Source of the DNA: Escherichia coli O127:H6 str. E2348/69
GTDB taxonomy: Bacteria; Pseudomonadota; Gammaproteobacteria; Enterobacterales; Enterobacteriaceae
DNA: 64,000 bases
Strand: one strand, 5' to 3'
NCBI RefSeq assembly: GCF_000026545.1
Contig: NC_011601.1
Position 1 is the stretch's first letter. Every line of letters starts with the position of its first letter. The notes below the pieces were generated by a model, which was given only the letters and a program-made list of their open reading frames with translations, made no database searches and had not been told where the DNA came from. Below, in pieces: positions 3,711 through 46,240 of the stretch. The translations under genes and the position numbers were made by a program.

Positions 3711-5260
3711 CTGTCTCTTATACACAAATCCCCACCCGGGGATTTGTGATGTCTGTCAGTCTGCTTTAGGGGGACTCTTTCCATCCGGTAGTTTCCTTCC
3801 TCCCCGGCAGCGATTTTTTGAACTTTTTCCTCACCCGTTGATCTTCTCTTATATTTCATTTTCTTCGGGTCTGTTATGGTACTTTCTGATTGTTATTCAT
3901 GGGCTAACGAGCAGTTTGGACATGCCCGTCTCGGTGATCCGCGTCGTACACGACGCCTTGTGTCACTGGCCTCTTCTCTCGCTCAGCATGCAGGTCTTTC
4001 TATTGTGAAATCATCCCAGTCCACTGCTCAGGTTGAAGGTGCGTACCGCCTGATACGTAACCCGTCTGTGTCCCCGCAAGCCATTGCCGAAGCCGGATTT
4101 ACCGCCACTGTAAGGGCATGTGAGGCTCATCCGCTGCTCCTCGCGCTGGAAGACACCACCACCATTAACTTCAGTCACAGTACGGCATCTGATGACCTGG
4201 GGAATACCACCACTAACCCGAAGACGCGCGGGCTGCTGGCTCACTCTGTCCTGATGTACGCCCCCGACAGCGCCCTGCCAGTCGGTCTTATCGAACAGCA
4301 GCGCTGGAGTCGTGCCACGGACACCTACGGTGTTAAGCACCAGCGAAAAGAACGTCCCTATGAAGAAAAAGAAAGTTACCGCTGGCAGCAGGCTTCGGAG
4401 CGCATGGCCGAACGGCTGGGGGAGATACAGAAACGGGTAATCACTGTCTGTGACCGGGAAGCGGATATCTGGCATTACCTGCATTATAAAGTCAGCCACG
4501 GGCAGCGCTTCGTGGTGCGTGCAGCACAGAATCGCCGGCTGGAAGAAGCACCCGGCAAGCTCTTCGAACTGCCGGAAGTCCTGGCAACCGCGGGAAGCCA
4601 CACGCTGAATGTGATGCAAAAAGGCGGGCGGGCAGCCCGCCAGGCCCGGATGTTCATCAGTTACAGCGAAGTCAGCATAAAAAACCCCGACAACAGCGGC
4701 CAGGCGCTCCCGCTCACGTATGTCTGTTGCCGGGAGCAGGCAGAGGACGGCGCCTGCTGGCATCTGCTGACGTCAGAAAAAGTGGCGAGTGCCGCCGATG
4801 CGCGACGTATCGTCAGCCATTACGAGCGACGCTGGCTGATAGAGGAATACCACAAGGCGTGGAAAAGTGGTGGTACATGTGTGGAATCGCTGCGAATGCA
4901 GACCCGGGATAACCTCGAGCGCATGGTGGTTATCAAGGCGTTTATCGCGGTGCGGGTGCTGGGCCTGCGGCAGGGCGGTATCAGTGAAGAAACACAAAAT
5001 GACAGCTGTGAGAAAATACTGACGCCGACAGAGTGGAAACTGCTGTGGGTTAAGCTGGAAGGAAAACCGCTTCCGTCACAGATGCCGACACTGAAATGGG
5101 CCTGTCTGAAACTGGCGAAACTGGGGCGATGGCATGACAGCAAACGCACCGGTCGCCCCGGTTGGGTAGTCATGTGGGATGGCTGGTTCAGACTTCAGGA
5201 TATGGTTGAGGGTTACCTGGTGATGAAGTCTCTTGATCAGGAGATCTGATCAAGAGACAG
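3711..5260 (+). mobile_element. IS4-family insertion sequence, IS50/Tn5-like (about 1550 bp)
   Basis: Left end ctgtctcttatacacaaat (3711-3729) and right end agatctgatcaagagacag (5242-5260), inverted; one transposase ORF; flanked by identical ccaaaagggg at 3701-3710 and 5261-5270. Confidence 0.85.
3876..5249 (+). CDS. DDE transposase, IS4 family (Tn5 Tnp-like)
   Basis: 457-aa ORF; LGDPRRT N-terminal motif, catalytic-region motifs ALEDTT, VCDREADI, YERRWLIEEYHKAW; stop codon lies inside the right terminal repeat as in IS50. Confidence 0.9.
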   Translation: MVLSDCYSWANEQFGHARLGDPRRTRRLVSLASSLAQHAGLSIVKSSQSTAQVEGAYRLIRNPSVSPQAIAEAGFTATVRACEAHPLLLALEDTTTINFSHSTASDDLGNTTTNPKTRGLLAHSVLMYAPDSALPVGLIEQQRWSRATDTYGVKHQRKERPYEEKESYRWQQASERMAERLGEIQKRVITVCDREADIWHYLHYKVSHGQRFVVRAAQNRRLEEAPGKLFELPEVLATAGSHTLNVMQKGGRAARQARMFISYSEVSIKNPDNSGQALPLTYVCCREQAEDGACWHLLTSEKVASAADARRIVSHYERRWLIEEYHKAWKSGGTCVESLRMQTRDNLERMVVIKAFIAVRVLGLRQGGISEETQNDSCEKILTPTEWKLLWVKLEGKPLPSQMPTLKWACLKLAKLGRWHDSKRTGRPGWVVMWDGWFRLQDMVEGYLVMKSLDQEI

Positions 5261-32551: not shown

Positions 32552-33074
32552 ATTCTTCTCCCCTCATAGGCAACGAATAGCATTTTGTGTTGAGGATCAC
32601 AAAACGAATAATTGCTGGTCGCCGCGATAAGGTCAGACGAAGTCAACAAGGAGGATTTTCGCTGTGCTTTACATCAGCGTAGGCCATAGAATGTTGCTTC
32701 GTTGACTGTAATGCCGGGTAAATGAGCATTTTTTGATAGTGCGAAAGAACCCTGCGAGGAAAATAAGCATCTATTATTGTTTGTCATGATGACAAGGCAG
32801 GCATCAATGAAAGGCTTCTCAATTGCACATATTTTTCACTCTTCAATGCACGCAGTGGTTAACAATCACAATAGAAATATTGATTATTGGACGGTAAAAA
32901 TTTAGGTTATAACGCCCAAATGATTCAACGATCGGACAATACCTGCGAACTTACAATTAATGAGAGAAATATATGTATAATTACGACCTTTTAAATGCAA
33001 TATAGACTTAATAACTTCTTACAAAGTCTGTTATTAATACCGTAGATATTCATCTTACCCTGGGCACCAAAAGC

Positions 33075-36464: not shown

Positions 36465-37799
36465 TTATTTCTGCAATTCCATACGTTTAATGTCGCCGAC
36501 TACGAAGAGGTAGCAGACCATCGCCATCAGCGCTGAACATCCCACAAAAACCAGTGCTGCATTGAAGGAGTGCAGTTCACTTACCAGGTAGCCAATCACC
36601 AGTGGAGTGACAATGGAGGCAACATTGCCAAAGACGTTAAAGACGCCGCCGCAGAGGCCAACAATCTCTTTCGGCGCGGTGTCAGAAATCACTGGCCAGC
36701 CCAGCGCACCAAATCCTTTGCCAAAGAAAGCCAGCGCCATCAGCATGACCACCAGCGTGGTGTTGTTGGTGTAGTTACATAAGATGATGGTGGAAGCCAG
36801 CAACATTCCCAGCACAATCGGTAGCTTACGTGCCAGGGTCAGGGACAAACCGCGTTTGATCAGATAATCCGAGAAGACACCTCCCAGCACGCCGCCCGCA
36901 AAGCCACACAGTGCCGGAATCGAGGCGACCAGACCCACTTTCAGAATCGACATGCCTTTTTCCTGCACCAGATAAATTGGGAACCAGGTGAGGAAGAACC
37001 AGGTGATGGTGTTGATAAAATATTGTCCGAAAAATACGCCCAGCATCATGCGGTTAGAGAGCAATTGCTTGATGTAATGCAGTTTGGGACCGCTTGCTGC
37101 CGCACTGCCCGGCTTTTTGTGGTCCATATCGACCACCGCGCCATTTTCTGAGATAAACTTCAGCTCTTCCGCAGACATACGTGGGTGATCTGTCGGGTTA
37201 TGAATCAACTTGATCCACAGCGCCGTCAGCACAAAACCAATCACCCCCATAACGGTGAAGACGTGCTCCCAGCCCCAGGCGAAAGTCAGCCAGCCAAGCA
37301 GCGGCGAAAAGAGCGCCAGCGAGAAATATTGCGCCGAGTTAAAGATGGCGGAGGCAGTACCACGTTCTTTCGTCGGGAACCAGGCGGCGACAATACGGGC
37401 GTTCGCCGGGAATGATGGCGCTTCCGAGAATCCCAGCATAAAGCGCATAAAGAACATGGAGATCCCTGCCCAGGCCAGCGGGAACATATCAACAAAGCCT
37501 TGCAGGAAGGTGAACAGCGACCAGAAAAAGAGGCTGTAGGTGTAAACTTTTTTCGAGCCAAACTTATCAAGCAGCCAGCCGCCGGGAATTTGCATCAGCA
37601 GGTAGGCCCAGCCAAAAGCGGAGAAGATGTAACCCATCGAAACCGCACTTAACTGCAACTCTTTTGCCACTTCGGTACCAGCAATAGACAGCGTTGCACG
37701 ATCGGCGTAGTTAACGGCGGTAACAATAAAAATAATCAGTAATATTAAATAGCGGGTATGCACGCCTTTCTTTTTTTCGTCAACGGTGTCCAACATCAT
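36465..37799 (-). CDS. garP: Galactarate/glucarate MFS transporter
   Basis: 444-aa polytopic ORF. Confidence 0.95.
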   Translation of the reverse strand: MMLDTVDEKKKGVHTRYLILLIIFIVTAVNYADRATLSIAGTEVAKELQLSAVSMGYIFSAFGWAYLLMQIPGGWLLDKFGSKKVYTYSLFFWSLFTFLQGFVDMFPLAWAGISMFFMRFMLGFSEAPSFPANARIVAAWFPTKERGTASAIFNSAQYFSLALFSPLLGWLTFAWGWEHVFTVMGVIGFVLTALWIKLIHNPTDHPRMSAEELKFISENGAVVDMDHKKPGSAAASGPKLHYIKQLLSNRMMLGVFFGQYFINTITWFFLTWFPIYLVQEKGMSILKVGLVASIPALCGFAGGVLGGVFSDYLIKRGLSLTLARKLPIVLGMLLASTIILCNYTNNTTLVVMLMALAFFGKGFGALGWPVISDTAPKEIVGLCGGVFNVFGNVASIVTPLVIGYLVSELHSFNAALVFVGCSALMAMVCYLFVVGDIKRMELQK

Positions 37800-38173
37800 T
37801 TTATTTACCTCGGGTACTTATGCTGATTTTTATTATTATGGGGAAGGTGTTATTTATGAGTTTCATTTATGCCGTTACGACAATGAACTCGGGAATTAGT
37901 ATAAGCAGCGCGATAATAATAATCATTGTGCAAATGCTAATTTAATTAGTACTATTTAAATATTATTTTGAGCATATGCACATAAGGTTGCGCGCTAAAG
38001 CACAGATTTGCGCTTTACCTTGCCGGGCGGCACTGTAATCCCTGAAATGATTGACATTGATCACATTTCTTCATTTAAACTCCTGACATTCTTATTTCAC
38101 CCAATGAAGTTATTTATTTTTAAATGAGACCAGGTCCTCATTTTAATAGTCCCTGGCTGGAGAATATTGCACA

Positions 38174-39745
38174 ATGGCCAACATCGAAATCAGACAAGAA
38201 ACGCCAACTGCGTTTTATATAAAAGTTCACGACACAGATAATGTGGCAATTATTGTTAATGATAATGGCCTGAAAGCAGGAACGCGTTTTCCGGATGGGC
38301 TGGAATTAATTGAACATATTCCCCAGGGGCATAAAGTCGCATTGCTGGACATTCCGGCTAATGGTGAAATTATTCGTTATGGCGAGGTGATTGGTTACGC
38401 CGTGCGCGCAATCTCACGCGGAAGCTGGATCGACGAATCAATGGTTGTACTACCGGAAGCGCCGCCGTTACATACGCTGCCACTGGCAACCAAAGTCCCG
38501 GAACCCTTACCGCCGCTGGAAGGATACACCTTTGAGGGCTATCGCAATGCCGATGGCAGCGTGGGCACCAAAAACCTGCTCGGCATCACCACCAGCGTCC
38601 ACTGTGTGGCAGGCGTGGTGGACTACGTAGTAAAAATCATTGAACGCGATCTGCTACCGAAATACCCGAACGTCGATGGCGTGGTGGGGCTGAATCATTT
38701 GTACGGTTGTGGCGTGGCGATTAACGCACCCGCGGCAGTTGTACCTATTCGTACCATTCACAATATTTCGCTGAACCCTAACTTTGGCGGCGAAGTAATG
38801 GTGATTGGTCTGGGTTGTGAAAAGTTGCAGCCTGAACGCCTACTGACTGGAACGGATGATGTGCAAGCTATTCCAGTAGAAAGCGCCAGCATTGTCAGTT
38901 TGCAGGATGAAAAGCATGTCGGTTTTCAGTCCATGGTCGAGGATATTTTGCAGGTCGCCGAACGCCATTTGCACAAGCTGAATCAACGGCAGCGAGAAAC
39001 CTGTCCGGCTTCAGAACTGGTTGTCGGCATGCAGTGCGGTGGCAGCGATGCGTTTTCTGGCGTAACGGCAAACCCGGCGGTTGGGTATGCGTCTGATCTA
39101 TTGGTGCGCTGCGGCGCAACGGTGATGTTCTCAGAAGTCACAGAAGTGCGTGACGCGATCCATCTGCTGACACCACGCGCAGTGAACGAAGAGGTCGGCA
39201 AACGGCTGCTGGAGGAGATGGAGTGGTACGATAACTATCTCAATATGGGAAAAACCGACCGCAGCGCCAACCCTTCGCCGGGGAACAAGAAAGGCGGTCT
39301 GGCAAATGTGGTGGAGAAGGCACTCGGCTCCATTGCTAAATCGGGTAAAAGTGCAATTGTTGAAGTGCTGTCGCCCGGCCAACGCCCGACTAAACGCGGA
39401 TTAATTTACGCCGCGACGCCAGCCAGCGATTTTGTCTGTGGCACGCAACAGGTGGCTTCGGGTATCACCGTGCAAGTGTTTACGACCGGTCGTGGTACGC
39501 CGTACGGCCTGATGGCGGTACCCGTCATTAAAATGGCGACCCGCACCGAGCTGGCGAACCGCTGGTTTGATTTAATGGATATTAACGCGGGCACTATCGC
39601 TACCGGCGAAGAAACCATTGAAGAAGTGGGCTGGAAGTTGTTCCACTTTATTCTCGACGTCGCCAGCGGGAAGAAGAAAACCTTCTCGGATCAATGGGGA
39701 CTGCATAACCAGCTGGCGGTGTTTAACCCGGCACCGGTGACCTGA
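38174..39745 (+). CDS. garD: Galactarate dehydratase
   Basis: 523-aa ORF, divergent from garPLRK. Confidence 0.95.
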
Positions 39746-39761
39746 TAATTCAATTCGTATT

Positions 39762-39790
39762 ATGCCCGATAGCACACGTTTATCGGGCAT
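39762..39790. terminator. Hairpin between convergent garD and agaR (possible bidirectional terminator)
   Basis: atgcccgat-agcacacgtt-tatcgggcat. Confidence 0.5.
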
Positions 39791-39796
39791 ATTGAG

Positions 39797-40621
39797 TCAC
39801 AGCGAAGACGCGTGATCCCCGACCAGAATCACTTCAACTCCAGCCTTTCGCAGTCCTTCCAGACTATCCGCAGGAATGCCTTCATCAACAATGATCATGT
39901 CGATACGTTGAGTATCAATGATCTTATGTAAACTGGAACGATTGAACTTACTGGAATCGGTGACCACGATGATCCGTTCCGCAACTTCGCACATCCGACG
40001 GTTTAAACGGGCTTCATCTTCATTATGCGTGCTGACGCCGCGCTCCAGATCGATCGCATCTACACCAAGAAACAGCATATCGAAGTGGTAATTTTGCAGC
40101 GATTGCTCAGCCTGATCACCGTAAAAAGATTGCGACTGACGGCGCAAATGCCCCCCGGTCATCAGCAGCTCAACGCCTTCCGCTTCCAGCAACGCATTAG
40201 CCACGTTCATACCGTTGGTCATCGCAATTACGTCAGTGTGCTTGCGCATCAGACAAGCAATCTCAAAAGTGGTGGTCCCGGAGTCGAGGATCACCCGATG
40301 ACCAGGCTGAATCAACTCAACGGCAGCTTTCGCAACGCTGCGTTTCATCGCGGTGTTCAGCGCGCTTTTATCTTCCACTGATGGCTCGACTGACGGCGTT
40401 GTGCTATCGCAGATCAACGCGCCACCATAGGCACGCACAGCGATCCCCTGCTTTTCCAGAAACGCCAGATCGTTGCGGATCGTCACAGTAGATACACCAT
40501 ACAACGCCGATAGATCATTAACTTGCACACTTCCTTGCTGGCGCAGGCGTTGAATGATCTGCTCTCGTCGCTCACTGGTGCCTGTCACTCGCTTCTCGCC
40601 TGAAGCGTCGGTATTACTCAT
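39797..40621 (-). CDS. agaR: DeoR-family repressor of the aga/kba regulon
   Basis: 274-aa ORF with N-terminal HTH; divergent from kbaZ. Confidence 0.9.
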
Positions 40622-40869
40622 AGTAAGTCCTTTCGTAAAACTTTCGTTTCATTTCGTTTTGCCTATTAACGCCTTTCTATTAAGCAAATGCAAGCCCACC
40701 TTACCCATTGGCGCAAGCTACTCTCGTTTCAGTGGCTTTCATTATGTTTCTTTTGTGAATCAGATCAGAAAACTATTATCTTTCGTTTTATTTTTATCTC
40801 ACCATGACGCAGTATCAACTGAAACAAAACGAAAGATTAATATCGCAGTAATCTGAACTGGAGAGGAAA
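40622..40869. promoter_or_regulatory. agaR/kbaZ divergent promoter region with repeated CTTTCGTTT-type motifs (AgaR operator-like)
   Basis: cctttcgtaaaactttcgtttcatttcgtttt, tctcgtttcag, tctttcgtttta, aaacgaaag. Confidence 0.5.
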
Positions 40870-42150
40870 GTGAAACATCTGACAGAAATGGTGAGACAGC
40901 ACAAAGCGGGCAAAACAAATGGGATTTATGCCGTTTGTTCCGCACATCCGCTGGTGCTGGAAGCTGCAATCCGCTACGCCAGTGCAAACCAAACGCCGTT
41001 ACTGATTGAAGCAACCTCCAATCAGGTGGACCAGTTCGGCGGTTATACCGGAATGACGCCCGCCGATTTTCGCGGCTTTGTTTGTCAGCTCGCCGACTCG
41101 TTGAATTTCCCGCAGGATGCGCTGATTCTGGGTGGTGACCATCTGGGGCCAAACCGCTGGCAAAACCTGCCTGCCGCTCAGGCAATGGCCAATGCCGATG
41201 ATTTGATTAAAAGCTACGTGGCGGCAGGATTCAAAAAAATTCACCTTGATTGCAGCATGTCCTGTCAGGACGATCCGATTCCCTTAACTGATGACATCGT
41301 GGCTGAACGCGCCGCCCGTCTGGCGAAAGTGGCGGAAGAAACCTGTCTTGAACACTTTGGCGAAGCCGATCTGGAGTATGTCATTGGTACCGAAGTGCCG
41401 GTGCCTGGCGGCGCGCATGAAACCTTAAGCGAGCTGGCGGTCACCACGCCGGATGCCGCCCGCGCCACGCTGGAAGCCCATCGTCACGCTTTTGAAAAGC
41501 AGGGTCTGAATGCCATCTGGCCACGCATTATTGCCCTGGTGGTTCAACCCGGCGTCGAATTCGATCACACCAACGTTATTGATTATCAGCCCGCCAAAGC
41601 GACCGCCTTAAGCCAGATGGTCGAAAACTACGAAACGCTGATTTTCGAAGCGCACTCTACCGATTATCAAACACCGCAATCGCTGCGCCAGCTGGTGATT
41701 GACCACTTTGCCATTCTGAAAGTTGGCCCGGCGCTGACCTTTGCTCTGCGTGAAGCTCTGTTCTCTCTGGCGGCGATTGAAGAAGAACTGGTGCCAGCAA
41801 AAGCCTGTTCTGGTCTGCGTCAGGTGCTGGAAAACGTGATGCTCGACCGCCCGGAATACTGGCAAAGCCACTACCACGGTGACGGCAACGCGCGTCGTCT
41901 GGCGCGTGGTTATAGCTACTCGGATCGCGTGCGCTATTACTGGCCGGACAGCCAGATTGATGACGCTTTCGCTCATCTGGTTCGTAATCTGGCGGATTCA
42001 CCAATTCCGCTGCCGCTGATCAGTCAGTATCTGCCGCTGCAGTACGTGAAAGTTCGCTCCGGCGAGCTGCAGCCAACGCCACGGGAACTCATTATCAACC
42101 ATATTCAGGACATCCTGGCGCAGTACCACACAGCCTGTGAAGGCCAATAA
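40870..42150 (+). CDS. kbaZ: Tagatose-bisphosphate aldolase non-catalytic subunit
   Basis: 426-aa ORF with GTG start. Confidence 0.9.
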
Positions 42151-42172
42151 GCAAAACAAAGAGGAACACGCT

Positions 42173-42646
42173 ATGCCAAATATTGTTTTAAGTCGGATTG
42201 ATGAACGCTTGATTCACGGTCAGGTCGGCGTTCAGTGGGTCGGATTTGCGGGGGCAAATCTGGTGCTGGTAGCCAACGATGAGGTTGCCGAAGATCCGGT
42301 ACAACAAAACCTGATGGAAATGGTACTGGCAGAAGGGATCGCCGTACGTTTCTGGACGCTGCAAAAAGTCATCGACAACATTCATCGCGCCGCCGATCGA
42401 CAGAAAATCCTGCTGGTTTGTAAAACACCGGCCGATTTCCTGACGCTGGTGAAAGGTGGCGTTCCGGTGAATCGCATTAACGTTGGCAATATGCACTACG
42501 CCAATGGCAAGCAACAAATCGCCAAAACGGTTTCTGTGGATGCGGGTGATATCGCAGCATTTAACGACCTGAAAGCCGCTGGGGTGGAATGCTTCGTTCA
42601 GGGCGTCCCGACAGAGCCTGCTGTGGACCTCTTTAAATTACTTTGA
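42173..42646 (+). CDS. agaV: PTS N-acetylgalactosamine-specific EIIB
   Basis: ORF 42137..42646; start MPNIVLSRIDERLIHGQ gives 157 aa. Confidence 0.9.
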   Translation: MPNIVLSRIDERLIHGQVGVQWVGFAGANLVLVANDEVAEDPVQQNLMEMVLAEGIAVRFWTLQKVIDNIHRAADRQKILLVCKTPADFLTLVKGGVPVNRINVGNMHYANGKQQIAKTVSVDAGDIAAFNDLKAAGVECFVQGVPTEPAVDLFKLL

Positions 42647-42656
42647 GGGATTCATC

Positions 42657-43442
42657 ATGGAAATCAGTCTGTTGCAGGCATTTGCGTTGGGCATTATCGC
42701 CTTTATCGCTGGCCTGGATATGTTTAACGGCTTAACCCATATGCACCGCCCGGTGGTCCTCGGCCCGTTGGTCGGACTGGTACTTGGCGATCTGCATACC
42801 GGTATTTTAACCGGCGGTACGCTGGAACTGGTGTGGATGGGGCTGGCCCCGCTGGCAGGCGCACAACCGCCTAACGTGATTATCGGTACTATCGTCGGCA
42901 CGGCGTTTGCCATTACTACTGGCGTGAAACCCGATGTCGCGGTCGGTGTCGCCGTACCTTTCGCTGTCGCAGTACAGATGGGGATTACCTTCCTGTTCTC
43001 GGTGATGTCCGGCGTGATGTCCCGATGCGACCGGATGGCGGAGAACGCCGATACTCGCGGCATTGAACGCGTGAACTATCTGGCACTGCTGGCACTCGGC
43101 ACTTTCTATTTTCTCTGCGCTTTCCTGCCTATCTACTTCGGCGCGGAACATGCAAAAACCATCATTGATGTCCTGCCGCAACGATTAATCGACGGCCTCG
43201 GCGTCGCGGGCGGCATCATGCCAGCAATCGGTTTTGCCGTGCTGCTGAAAATCATGATGAAAAACGTCTACATCCCCTACTTCATCCTGGGCTTTGTTGC
43301 CGCAGCCTGGCTCAAGTTACCGGTGCTGGCTATTGCTGCCGCTGCGCTGGCGATGGCGATGGCGCTCATCGACCTGCTGCGTAAATCTCCTGAACCGACT
43401 CAACCTGCGGCACAGAAAGAGGAATTTGAAGATGGCATCTAA
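42657..43442 (+). CDS. agaW: PTS N-acetylgalactosamine-specific EIIC (full length)
   Basis: 261-aa polytopic ORF. Confidence 0.85.
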   Translation: MEISLLQAFALGIIAFIAGLDMFNGLTHMHRPVVLGPLVGLVLGDLHTGILTGGTLELVWMGLAPLAGAQPPNVIIGTIVGTAFAITTGVKPDVAVGVAVPFAVAVQMGITFLFSVMSGVMSRCDRMAENADTRGIERVNYLALLALGTFYFLCAFLPIYFGAEHAKTIIDVLPQRLIDGLGVAGGIMPAIGFAVLLKIMMKNVYIPYFILGFVAAAWLKLPVLAIAAAALAMAMALIDLLRKSPEPTQPAAQKEEFEDGI

Positions 43443-44310
43443 TCAAACCACCCTGCCGAACGTCAGCGAAAATGAAGAAACACTGCTGACTGGCGTCAAT
43501 GAAAACGTGTATGAAGATCAGAGCATTGGCGCGGAGCTGACGAAAAAAGATATCAACCGCGTCGCCTGGCGTTCCATGTTGTTACAGGCTTCTTTCAACT
43601 ACGAACGTATGCAGGCTTCCGGCTGGCTGTACGGCCTGCTGCCAGCACTGAAAAAGATCCACACTAATAAACGCGACCTGGCGCGCGCTATGAAGGGGCA
43701 TATGGGTTTCTTCAATACCCATCCGTTTCTGGTGACGTTTGTTATCGGCATTATCCTTGCGATGGAGCGTTCTAAGCAGGACGTTAACAGTATTCAGAGC
43801 ACCAAAATTGCCGTCGGTGCGCCGCTCGGCGGGATTGGCGATGCGATGTTCTGGCTAACGCTACTGCCGATTTGTGGCGGGATTGGTGCAAGCCTCGCGC
43901 TACAAGGCTCTATTCTTGGCGCTGTCGTCTTTATTGTGCTGTTCAACGTGGTACACCTGGGGCTGCGTTTTGGTCTGGCGCATTATGCTTACCGCATGGG
44001 CGTGGCGGCGATTCCACTCATTAAAGCGAATACCAAAAAAGTCGGCCATGCTGCGTCTATCGTTGGGATGACGGTAATCGGCGCGCTGGTGGCAACCTAT
44101 GTTCGTTTAAGCACCACGCTGGAAATCACAGCGGGCGACGCAGTGGTTAAGTTACAGGCTGATGTTATCGACAAACTGATGCCTGCCTTCTTACCGCTGG
44201 TCTACACCCTGACCATGTTCTGGCTGGTACGCCGCGGCTGGAGTCCGCTGCGCCTGATTGCAGTGACCGTGGTTCTCGGCATCGTCGGTAAATTCTGCCA
44301 TTTCCTTTAA
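43432..44310 (+). CDS. agaE: PTS N-acetylgalactosamine-specific EIID
   Basis: ORF 43294..44310; start MASNQTTLPN gives 292 aa, overlapping the agaW stop. Confidence 0.85.
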   Translation: MASNQTTLPNVSENEETLLTGVNENVYEDQSIGAELTKKDINRVAWRSMLLQASFNYERMQASGWLYGLLPALKKIHTNKRDLARAMKGHMGFFNTHPFLVTFVIGIILAMERSKQDVNSIQSTKIAVGAPLGGIGDAMFWLTLLPICGGIGASLALQGSILGAVVFIVLFNVVHLGLRFGLAHYAYRMGVAAIPLIKANTKKVGHAASIVGMTVIGALVATYVRLSTTLEITAGDAVVKLQADVIDKLMPAFLPLVYTLTMFWLVRRGWSPLRLIAVTVVLGIVGKFCHFL

Positions 44311-44327
44311 ATACAATGAGGTATTAG

Positions 44328-44762
44328 ATGTTAAGTATTATTTTGACAGGGCATGGCGGATTTGCCAGCGGCATGGAAAAAGCAATGAAGCAAATTCTCG
44401 GTGAGCAATCGCAGTTTATCGCCATCGATTTTCCGGAAACCTCAAGCACCGCGCTGCTTACATCGCAGCTTGAAGAGGCCATCGTCCAACTGGATTGTGA
44501 AGACGGCATTGTTTTTCTGACGGATTTGCTGGGCGGCACGCCGTTTCGCGTAGCTTCAACGCTGGCGATGCAAAAACCGGGCTGTGAAGTGATCACAGGG
44601 ACCAATTTACAACTGCTACTGGAGATGGTGCTGGAACGCGAAGGGTTAAGCGGTGAAGAGTTTCGTGTGCAGGCGCTGGAGTGTGGACACCGTGGGCTAA
44701 CCAGTCTGGTGGACGAACTTGGTCGCTGCCATGAGGAATGTCCGGTCGAGGAAGGAATATGA
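44328..44762 (+). CDS. agaF: PTS EIIA (mannose family)
   Basis: 144-aa ORF. Confidence 0.85.
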   Translation: MLSIILTGHGGFASGMEKAMKQILGEQSQFIAIDFPETSSTALLTSQLEEAIVQLDCEDGIVFLTDLLGGTPFRVASTLAMQKPGCEVITGTNLQLLLEMVLEREGLSGEEFRVQALECGHRGLTSLVDELGRCHEECPVEEGI

Positions 44763-45892
44763 CACACGTTCTGCGCGCCAGAAGGCTGCTGACTGAAGAG
44801 GGATGGTTCGATAACCATCAGTTGCGTATTGCTGACGGTGTAATCGCAGCAATCGAACCGATTCCAGTGGGCGTGACTGAACGCGATGCGGAACTGCTCT
44901 GCCCCGCTTACATCGACACCCATGTACACGGTGGTGCGGGCGTTGATGTAATGGATGACGCGCCGGATGCGCTCGACAAGCTGGCAATGCACAAAGCACG
45001 CGAAGGTGTCGGCAGTTGGTTACCGACCACCGTAACCGCGCCGCTTAATACCATTCATGCGGCGCTGGAACGTATTGCTCAACGTTGCCAACGCGGCGGA
45101 CCTGGTGCTCAAATACTGGGGAGTTATCTCGAAGGACCGTACTTCACGCCGCAGAATAAAGGCGCGCATCCGCCGGAGCTGTTTCGCGAGCTGGAAATTG
45201 CCGAGCTGGATCAATTGATTGCCGTTTCTCAGCACACCTTGCGCGTGGTGGCGCTGGCACCGGAAAAAGAAGGGGCATTGCAGGCCATCCGCCATCTTAA
45301 ACAGCAAAACGTAAGGGTGATGCTGGGGCATAGCGCGGCGACCTGGCAACAAACCCGCGCCGCGTTTGATGCTGGTGCCGACGGCCTGGTGCATTGCTAT
45401 AACGGGATGACAGGTTTACATCACCGCGAACCGGGAATGGTTGGCGCGGGATTAACGGACAAGCGCGCCTGGCTGGAACTGATAGCCGATGGTCATCATG
45501 TGCATCCGGCGGCGATGTCGCTGTGTTGTTGCTGTGCGAAAGAGAGAATCGTGCTGATCACCGACGCGATGCAGGCAGCCGGGATGCCGGATGGTCGCTA
45601 TACGTTATGTGGCGAAGAAGTGCAGATGCACGGTGGCGTTGTCCGTACCGCGTCCGGTGGGCTGGCGGGCAGTACGCTGTCTGTCGATGCGGCAGTGCGC
45701 AACATGGTCGAGTTGACGGGCGTAACGCCTGCGGAAGCCATCCATATGGCGTCGCTGCATCCGGCGCGTATGCTGGGTGTTGATGATGTTCTGGGATCGC
45801 TTAAACCGGGCAAACGCGCCAGCGTCGTTGCGCTGGATAGCGGGCTGCATGTGCAACAAATCTGGATTCAGGGTCAATTAGCTTCGTTTTGA
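44759..45892 (+). CDS. agaA: N-acetylgalactosamine-6-phosphate deacetylase (full length)
   Basis: ORF 44738..45892; start MTHVLRARRLL gives 377 aa; ATGA overlap with agaF. Confidence 0.85.
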   Translation: MTHVLRARRLLTEEGWFDNHQLRIADGVIAAIEPIPVGVTERDAELLCPAYIDTHVHGGAGVDVMDDAPDALDKLAMHKAREGVGSWLPTTVTAPLNTIHAALERIAQRCQRGGPGAQILGSYLEGPYFTPQNKGAHPPELFRELEIAELDQLIAVSQHTLRVVALAPEKEGALQAIRHLKQQNVRVMLGHSAATWQQTRAAFDAGADGLVHCYNGMTGLHHREPGMVGAGLTDKRAWLELIADGHHVHPAAMSLCCCCAKERIVLITDAMQAAGMPDGRYTLCGEEVQMHGGVVRTASGGLAGSTLSVDAAVRNMVELTGVTPAEAIHMASLHPARMLGVDDVLGSLKPGKRASVVALDSGLHVQQIWIQGQLASF

Positions 45893-45969
45893 TGGTTTGC
45901 TCCTTTATTGGGCCTTCACTTCCCCCGTAAGACCTTTCTTTTTCTTTCGTTGTGCTCTGTGCAGGGTAT

Positions 45970-46022
45970 CGGATGCGACGCTGACGCGTCTTCTTTGACC
46001 TACGGTACGCCGCATCCGGCAA
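45970..46022. repeat. REP-like palindromic element
   Basis: cggatgcgacgctgacgcgtc...acgccgcatccggc. Confidence 0.6.
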
Positions 46023-46059
46023 TCGGTGCACATAGCGACGTCATCACGCAATCCTTTAA

Positions 46060-46240
46060 TCTTCCCTTGTCTTTTCTTTCAATGATCACAAATTTCGGTT
46101 TATTTCTTTTTTCTCCGTTGAACTTTCAGTTTCTTTTCTATAGATTTTAATCAACGAAAGAAATCACCAAGTGAAATGAAACGAAAGGCAAGCGAAAGCG
46201 ACAACGCCGACGTCAAGTTCATCAGACTAAGGATTGAGTT
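46060..46240 (+). promoter_or_regulatory. agaS promoter region with CTTTC/GAAAG operator-like repeats
   Basis: tcttttctttc, tttcagtttcttttc, aacgaaagaaatc, gaaatgaaacgaaagg. Confidence 0.45.

Follow-up and report, generated by a model that had tools for sequence, protein, structure and literature searches.

Escherichia coli E2348/69 carries an ordinary complete agaVWEFA operon with a rare two-residue insertion in AgaW

Escherichia coli K-12 is Aga- Gam-, and the cause is a 2.3-kb deletion (PMC3668189) that extends from agaW to agaA and has been published (PMC3668189, PMC2808357). Is the corresponding locus of E. coli O127:H6 strain E2348/69 complete, as an initial annotation made from the sequence proposed, and would it allow the strain to use N-acetylgalactosamine (GalNAc)? 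GalNAc occurs as a sugar of mucin, which gives a complete aga operon some relevance to how a pathogen colonizes the gut. We analyzed a window of 64,000 nucleotides, the whole stretch of DNA around the locus, and recorded its observed gene content, integrity, family assignment, deletion ends, population frequency and constraint. The locus is best read as an ordinary complete GalNAc operon whose permease and pathway very probably work and from which K-12 has lost 2311 bp. The genes of the first operon are as follows.

40870..42150, + strand: kbaZ (agaZ), 426 aa, intact; NCBIfam NF012002, 898.8 bits (cut-off 707)
42173..42646, + strand: agaV, GalNAc-specific PTS IIB, 157 aa; NF008508, 319.9 bits (cut-off 180)
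42657..43442, + strand: agaW, GalNAc-specific PTS IIC, 261 aa; NF040757, 405.5 bits (cut-off 300)
43432..44310, + strand: agaE, GalNAc-specific PTS IID, 292 aa; NF040760, 617.6 bits (cut-off 500)
44328..44762, + strand: agaF, PTS IIA common to the GalNAc and galactosamine (GalN) transporters, 144 aa; NF040761, 217.5 bits (cut-off 130)
44759..45892, + strand: agaA, GalNAc-6-phosphate deacetylase of the NagA family, 377 aa; TIGR00221, 290.6 bits (cut-off 225.65)

The initial annotation had described agaW, agaE, agaF and agaA as full-length frames of 261, 292, 144 and 377 aa with overlapping or coupled starts, and translation bore out both statements. Neither a frameshift nor a premature stop was found in 42657-45892, and three independent assemblies exclude either across 42173-45892. 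From agaV to agaA, each gene begins with ATG behind a purine-rich, Shine-Dalgarno-like run, has a length that is a multiple of three and contains zero internal stops. The genes are tightly packed, with overlaps of 11 nt between agaW and agaE and of 4 nt (ATGA) between agaF and agaA, and spacers of 10 nt between agaV and agaW and 17 nt between agaE and agaF. The chromosome record NZ_CP059840.2 of E2348/69, an enteropathogenic strain, is 100% identical to the window, and its RefSeq annotation places agaV, agaW, agaE, agaF and agaA at coordinates matching our frames. Antisense frames within the operon, such as that of 222 aa at 44324-44992 on the minus strand, were counted as chance because the opposite strand holds well-supported genes. 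The gene heading the kbaZ-agaVWEFA operon encodes the non-catalytic subunit of tagatose-1,6-bisphosphate aldolase.

All eight proteins tested passed the curated NCBIfam cut-offs. AgaV, AgaW, AgaE and AgaF each matched their own equivalog model, so that all four subunits (IIA, IIB, IIC and IID) of a mannose/fructose/sorbose-family PTS are present above the family cut-offs. The match of AgaA to the NagA equivalog TIGR00221 spans residues 3-372, and the protein retains the N-terminal HxH metal motif (DTHVHGG); its substrate preference is predicted. Candidate phosphorylatable histidines lie near the N-termini of AgaF (ILTGH(9)GGFA) and AgaV (DERLIH(15)GQVG), and we take His9 and His15 to be the equivalents of ManX His10 and His175.

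Outside agaVWEFA, the window contains the regulator, two control regions and a second operon.

39797..40621, - strand: agaR, DeoR-type repressor of the aga/gam regulon, 274 aa
40622..40869, unstranded: divergent agaR/kbaZ promoter-operator region (Pr, Pz) with repeated CTTTC-type boxes, from sequence comparison
45893..46240, unstranded: agaA-agaS spacer, Ps promoter-operator region, variable in the middle with conserved flanks
46241..51302, + strand: second operon, agaS-kbaY-agaBCDI, six genes, all intact

The gene order, agaR / kbaZ-agaV-agaW-agaE-agaF-agaA / agaS-kbaY-agaB-agaC-agaD-agaI, is that of ATCC 8739, and 13 of the 13 aga/gam genes are undisrupted by both translation and RefSeq gene calls. 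The second operon encodes a GalN-6-P deaminase/isomerase, an aldolase catalytic subunit, the GalN-specific IIB, IIC and IID, and AgaI. Intact frames do not by themselves prove GalNAc use, given the precedent of AgaF Gly91Ser in E. coli O157:H7: in isolates from the 2006 spinach outbreak this substitution alone abolishes GalNAc use, and O157:H7 further carries amber codons at agaC codon 8 and agaI codon 72 (PMC3668189). None of these Aga-/Gam- alleles (AgaF Gly91Ser, TAG at agaC codon 8, TAG at agaI codon 72) occurs in the window, where AgaF has Gly at position 91, agaC reads CAG (Gln) at codon 8 with no amber codon, and agaI has zero internal stops.

By sequence comparison, the AgaR-controlled promoter-operator regions are conserved. 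The agaR-kbaZ spacer, for which AgaR binding at Pr/Pz is documented (PMC3668189, citing Ray and Larson 2004), is identical to K-12 at 244 of 248 positions and to ATCC 8739 at 245 of 248. The agaA-agaS spacer matches K-12 at 310 of 357 positions and ATCC 8739 at 328 of 350, with the agaS-proximal part conserved. A consensus promoter and terminator search of 40500-46400 gave three promoter-like sites where chance alone predicts 4.5, none of them at the expected Pz position, and an Rfam scan of 38000-52500 returned no RNA family at threshold. AgaR itself differs from the 269-aa protein of K-12 and ATCC 8739 by R123C, E269D and a C-terminal HASSL extension, and the 3' end of its gene lies within a 69-bp spacer lacking prlF-yhaV. 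The exact 274-aa form was found on 445 contigs and is a minority allele.

The deletion in K-12 from agaW to agaA that the initial annotation cited, and took to be absent here, was confirmed by aligning the two aga regions. BLAST blocks and a base-by-base comparison of the junction place it as follows.

43033..45343, unstranded: segment absent from K-12, 2311 bp, from BLAST blocks and junction comparison
43027..43032, unstranded: left copy of the GCGACC direct repeat, K-12 deletion end point, from junction comparison
45338..45343, unstranded: right copy of the GCGACC direct repeat, K-12 deletion end point, from junction comparison

The extra 2311 bp in the window agree with the published 2.3 kb. 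K-12 has lost AgaW from codon 126, the whole of agaE and agaF, and AgaA through codon 195; the resulting allele, in which agaW codon 125 is joined to agaA codon 196 over one GCGACC, is absent from the window, which retains both copies of the hexamer and the intervening 2305 bp. The 6-bp GCGACC is the only microhomology at the deletion ends; no long direct repeats accounting for the deletion were found, and other short repeats look like chance. An illegitimate deletion between the two hexamers removed the 2311 bp in K-12: the remnants of agaW and agaA were fused, and agaE and agaF were lost.

Among 5426 complete E. coli genomes, the 2311-bp segment is present in 4930 and the K-12 junction in 371, and the junction-bearing genomes that we sampled were mostly laboratory derivatives. 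An intact agaVWEFA is the norm of the species, found in about nine in ten E. coli, and K-12 is the exception and an atypical reference at this locus. Framing the operon as unlike that of K-12 therefore overstates its interest. The operon of E2348/69 is indeed intact, but this is unremarkable and not new: the deletion in K-12, like the complete operon of other E. coli, has been in print since 2000, and the E2348/69 genome annotation already lists the agaVWEFA genes.

The pathway that these genes would serve was reportedly outlined by Brinkkoetter in 2000. In the scheme of Hu 2013 (PMC3668189), AgaF (IIA), AgaV (IIB), AgaW (IIC) and AgaE (IID) would form a mannose-family PTS permease that brings in GalNAc as GalNAc-6-phosphate. 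AgaA would deacetylate this to GalN-6-P, and AgaS would deaminate and isomerize the product to tagatose-6-P, which would be phosphorylated and then, as tagatose-1,6-bisphosphate, split by KbaY/KbaZ; AgaR would hold Pr, Pz and Ps repressed until the inducer arrives. E. coli C, which has all 13 genes, is Aga+ Gam+ (PMC3668189), and enteroaggregative strain 042, whose locus is intact, outperforms MG1655 in GalNAc use (PMC2808357). E2348/69 grows with mucin as sole carbon source and K-12 controls do not (PMC11656320), which offers weak and indirect support for GalNAc use.

Compared with ATCC 8739, of the E. coli C lineage that is Aga+ Gam+, agaVWEFA shows strong purifying selection, with a pooled pN/pS of 0.044; AgaE differs only by I224V, AgaF only by A53V, and AgaA by eight substitutions. 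Given the 13 intact genes, Gly91 in AgaF, CAG in agaC, the conserved control regions and this low pN/pS, growth of E2348/69 on GalNAc can be reasonably predicted from the sequence. We infer a working permease and pathway, and with them probable growth on galactosamine as well, by way of AgaBCD plus AgaF.

One feature of the operon is unusual and was concealed by the label of a full-length frame.

43348..43364, + strand: hexanucleotide tract TGGCGATGGCGATGGCG in agaW, with one additional GCGATG unit at 43350-43355

The extra unit forms codons 232-233 and adds Ala-Met to the last of the membrane helices predicted for AgaW. The canonical protein has 259 aa, in ATCC 8739 and in all other complete genomes checked, against 261 aa in E2348/69; the duplication was seen in 3 of 4942 complete genomes, all three of them E2348/69 stocks. 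The identical 6 bp also occur on at least four further agaW haplotypes; there agaV, agaE and agaF are intact, as is all that can be seen of kbaZ and agaA. Rare as it is, the duplication has originated in several lineages and, since it recurs beside intact neighbors, does not go along with operon decay. Orthologues from E. coli, Morganella and Aeromonas (87-90% identity) are invariant in length at the insertion point. AgaW resembles the ManY chains 7dyr_Y and 6k1h_Y (E ~1e-28), and an AlphaFold2 model of the 261-aa protein, built on a 10-sequence alignment, has a mean pLDDT of 68.7 that falls below 50 at residues 203-261; the insertion lies in this low-confidence region, within a predicted helix at 223-242. 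The main text of the ManYZ-microcin structure paper does not give domain boundaries for the last ManY helix, and assigning the helix to the Vmotif scaffold domain would be tentative.

Could the frames be intact and the pathway nevertheless fail? The Ala-Met in AgaW, the variant AgaR or some other substitution might render E2348/69 Aga-. The insertion falls in LPVLAIAAAALAMALID, a stretch of constant length across three genera, and is rare among complete genomes; phenotype loss without disruption of a frame has a precedent (PMC3668189), and literature searches found no published GalNAc growth, transport or Biolog phenotype of E2348/69. However, the insertion is in frame and brings small hydrophobic residues into a helix already rich in Ala, Leu and Met, the NCBIfam score of AgaW stays far over its cut-off (405 vs. 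300), at least four other haplotypes with intact neighbors also have the duplication, and constraint is not relaxed elsewhere in the cluster. A defective AgaR, for its part, would yield constitutive expression rather than loss of the pathway. We consider a non-working pathway unlikely. A more specific idea, that the tract TGGCGATGGCG is a slippage hot spot gaining one unit again and again in unrelated E. coli lineages, and that the added Ala-Met inactivates or retunes the GalNAc permease, strikes us as rather improbable. Were it true, E2348/69 and the other carriers would be GalNAc-negative or shifted in sugar range although annotated as intact, and the agaW tract would be a cryptic reversible switch with an effect comparable to that of AgaF Gly91Ser in O157:H7. 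The hidden insertion calls for caution over the phenotype assigned to E2348/69 in metabolic models.

Short tandem repeats are prone to miscalling, and the three complete genomes with the duplication all trace to one strain, as might be expected if it, or the intactness of agaVWEFA, were an artefact of sequencing or assembly. Yet the identical 261-aa AgaW comes from three separately made assemblies and from the original FM180568 annotation (CAS10966.1), it is encoded on at least 24 additional contigs from other isolates, and the operon aligns end to end with thousands of genomes with the 6-bp duplication as the sole gap. An artefact is thus extremely improbable, and an ordinary, complete and very probably working operon remains our reading of the locus.

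The closest known system is that of E. coli C, whose aga/gam regulon was reportedly described by Brinkkoetter et al. in 2000 and serves as the experimentally established Aga+ Gam+ reference. ATCC 8739 (NC_010468.1) shares with the window the 13 genes, their order and orientation, identical AgaV, AgaC and AgaD proteins, and conserved intergenic control regions; substitutions number 1-8 in each of the remaining enzymes and PTS subunits. It differs in that AgaW of the window is longer by the two residues Ala-Met 232-233, AgaR has 269 aa there but 274 aa with R123C here, the C-terminus of AgaI diverges from residue 243, and the flanking prlF-yhaV and yraHIJK are missing from the window. The K-12 locus has collinear flanks of ~97-98% identity and also contains agaR, kbaZ, agaV, agaS, kbaY and agaBCDI, but lacks agaE and agaF altogether, along with the distal half of agaW and codons 1-195 of agaA. 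In O157:H7 (EDL933, Sakai and the spinach-outbreak isolates) agaVWEFA is likewise full-length, and the difference lies in its agaC and agaI ambers and the outbreak Gly91Ser, in place of the CAG, uninterrupted agaI and Gly of the window. The mannose system ManXYZ of E. coli (6K1H, 7DYR) belongs to the same family and follows the same IIA, IIB, IIC and IID plan, with AgaW residues 1-243 aligning to ManY, but it has another sugar specificity, and its ManX fuses the IIA and IIB that AgaF and AgaV provide as separate proteins. By homology with this family, elevator-type transport would be expected for the Aga permease (PMC8021565).

Independent translation of the window reproduced the lengths that the initial annotation had given for agaW, agaE, agaF and agaA, and found no frameshift or internal stop in any of the five agaVWEFA genes:

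42173–42646, agaV, 157 aa
42657–43442, agaW, 261 aa
43432–44310, agaE, 292 aa
44328–44762, agaF, 144 aa
44759–45892, agaA, 377 aa

All five genes have an ATG start and an upstream purine-rich ribosome-binding stretch. The starts are overlapping or coupled, as had been proposed: there is an 11-nt overlap between agaW and agaE and a 4-nt one (ATGA) between agaF and agaA, while 10 nt separate agaV from agaW and 17 nt separate agaE from agaF. A mechanical ORF list offered longer forms of agaV (169 aa, GTG), agaE (338 aa, TTG) and agaA (384 aa); it is the shorter ATG starts that fit the RefSeq annotation and the full-length family-model matches. On NZ_CP059840.2, the E2348/69 chromosome (EPEC O127:H6), which is 100% identical over a 12-kb query around the operon, RefSeq gives the order garD, agaR, kbaZ, agaV, agaW, agaE, agaF, agaA, agaS, kbaY, agaB, agaC, agaD, agaI, rsmI; the pipeline labels agaA as nagA. 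The eight proteins tested all passed the curated NCBIfam cut-offs. For AgaV, AgaW, AgaE, AgaF, KbaZ and KbaY the match is to the equivalog model of the protein itself, for AgaA to the NagA equivalog, and for AgaS to the AgaS subfamily model. By translation, all 13 aga/gam genes of the window are intact.

The deletion from agaW to agaA, which the initial annotation had attributed to K-12, was confirmed by alignment. A BLAST comparison of window 37001–52000 with the K-12 aga locus (L002) gave two blocks around the operon, 39816–43032 and 45334–51000, with a 10-base overlap on the K-12 side. Across the junction, the K-12 sequence is ...CGCTGCGACC joined to TGGCAAC, and the hexamer GCGACC is found at both 43027–43032 and 45338–45343 of the window; from the blocks and this junction, K-12 lacks 2311 bp (43033–45343). 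It retains AgaW codons 1–125 and AgaA codons 196–377, mutually out of frame and both pseudogene fragments in RefSeq. A search for flanking repeats longer than 6 bp found none. The loss resembles an illegitimate deletion mediated by microhomology, though a 6-bp match by itself is weak evidence for any particular mechanism. It is the 2.3-kb deletion known from earlier work (PMC3668189; PMC2808357, citing Brinkkoetter et al. 2000).

The intact agaVWEFA is the ordinary state of E. coli, and K-12 is the deviant. The 12-kb query had 95–99% matches in 5411 of the 5426 complete E. coli genomes, and the 2311-bp segment was present (coverage 80% or more) in 4930 of the 5426 and absent in 482; the intact form is carried by BL21, BLR(DE3), O157:H7, ST131 and ATCC 8739, a representative of the E. 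coli C lineage. A 126-bp probe spanning the K-12 junction matched at full length in 371 genomes; the ones sampled were for the most part laboratory strains derived from K-12, ER1709 and JM83 among them. About 111 genomes have therefore lost the segment in another way. AST46 (NZ_AP043639.1, H70) retains only its first 456 bp, and together these genomes indicate that independent deletions of the aga operon exist. The complete operon of E2348/69 is already annotated and its type long published.

The canonical AgaW has 259 aa versus 261 aa in the window. In the tract TGGCGATGGCGATGGCG (43348–43364), GCGATG occurs twice in tandem; the extra unit (43350–43355, codons 232–233) converts LAMAL to LAMAMAL, adding Ala-Met to the last predicted membrane helix. 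The length of this helix is constant across E. coli, Morganella and Aeromonas (alignment, 87–90% identity), and AlphaFold2 places the insertion within the last predicted helix (223–242), with confidence there below 50, so that the model says nothing further. Residues 1–243 are similar to ManY, the solved mannose-permease IIC subunit (E about 1e-28). Among complete genomes, a 106-bp probe found the duplicated form in 3 of 4942, each of them E2348/69 itself or a derived construct. At least 24 contigs of public draft assemblies also encode an identical 261-aa protein. Of six such loci fetched, five are 58–90 SNPs away from the window over 3.8 kb and two have an agaW just two SNPs from the ATCC 8739 allele; in the drafts, at least four agaW haplotypes besides that of the window carry the duplication. 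It has therefore either arisen more than once or spread by recombination, at a slippage-prone near-repeat; its presence on several haplotypes suggests recurrent slippage. All six loci have full-length agaV, agaE and agaF, with no break in as much of kbaZ and agaA as they contain. This argues that the duplication is not tied to operon decay, but it is no proof that the variant permease works.

Growth on GalNAc, the phenotype predicted initially, appears quite likely for E2348/69, judging from its sequence, with the AgaW insertion as the main remaining doubt. The E. coli C lineage is experimentally Aga+ Gam+ (PMC3668189). Compared with ATCC 8739, no residue differs in AgaV, AgaC or AgaD; AgaE and AgaF have a single substitution each, and AgaA and AgaS eight each. 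Pooled over agaVWEFA, 86.5 synonymous versus 11.5 non-synonymous changes (pN/pS 0.044) show that these genes have been kept under purifying selection from the time the lineages diverged. The natural loss-of-function alleles listed in PMC3668189 are absent from the window, which has Gly at position 91 of AgaF, CAG as the eighth codon of agaC, and an uninterrupted agaI. The agaR–kbaZ control region is identical to K-12 at 244 of 248 positions, and the part of the agaA–agaS spacer near agaS is also conserved. The flanks of this spacer are CTTTC-rich and conserved; its GC-rich middle (about 45960–46040) is poorly conserved, has small indels relative to K-12 and is possibly a REP-type element. Hu et al. 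found agaS essential, agaI dispensable and agaA replaceable by nagA (PMC3668189). A literature search found no published GalNAc growth phenotype of E2348/69; the sole pointer, an indirect hint, is that it grows on mucin as sole carbon source and K-12 controls do not (PMC11656320).

The surroundings of the cluster differ from those of the comparison genomes. Between agaI and rsmI, 93 bp (51260–51352) stand in place of 5476 bp of ATCC 8739 with the yraHIJK fimbrial operon, and the replacement has altered the last ~13 codons of agaI (255 versus 251 aa), a change that should not matter given its dispensability. The yhaB and yhaC genes of ATCC 8739 are missing from about 32800–33000, between rnpB and tdcR, an interval with just two tiny annotated pseudogene fragments left. 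Between sstT and alx, RefSeq annotates ISEc13 (IS4-like transposase gene; about 3876–5249, identical record). The prlF-yhaV toxin-antitoxin pair, located between garD and agaR in K-12 and ATCC 8739, is not in the window, where a hairpin-bearing spacer of 69 bp (ATGCCCGATA...TATCGGGCAT; 39747–39815) replaces 1005 bp; this junction is common to 189 of the 5426 complete genomes. The agaR stop codon lies inside the spacer, giving an AgaR (39797–40621) of 274 aa (E269D plus HASSL) versus 269 aa. The exact 274-aa protein is found on 445 contigs and is thus a natural lineage allele, differing from both K-12 and ATCC 8739 also by R123C.
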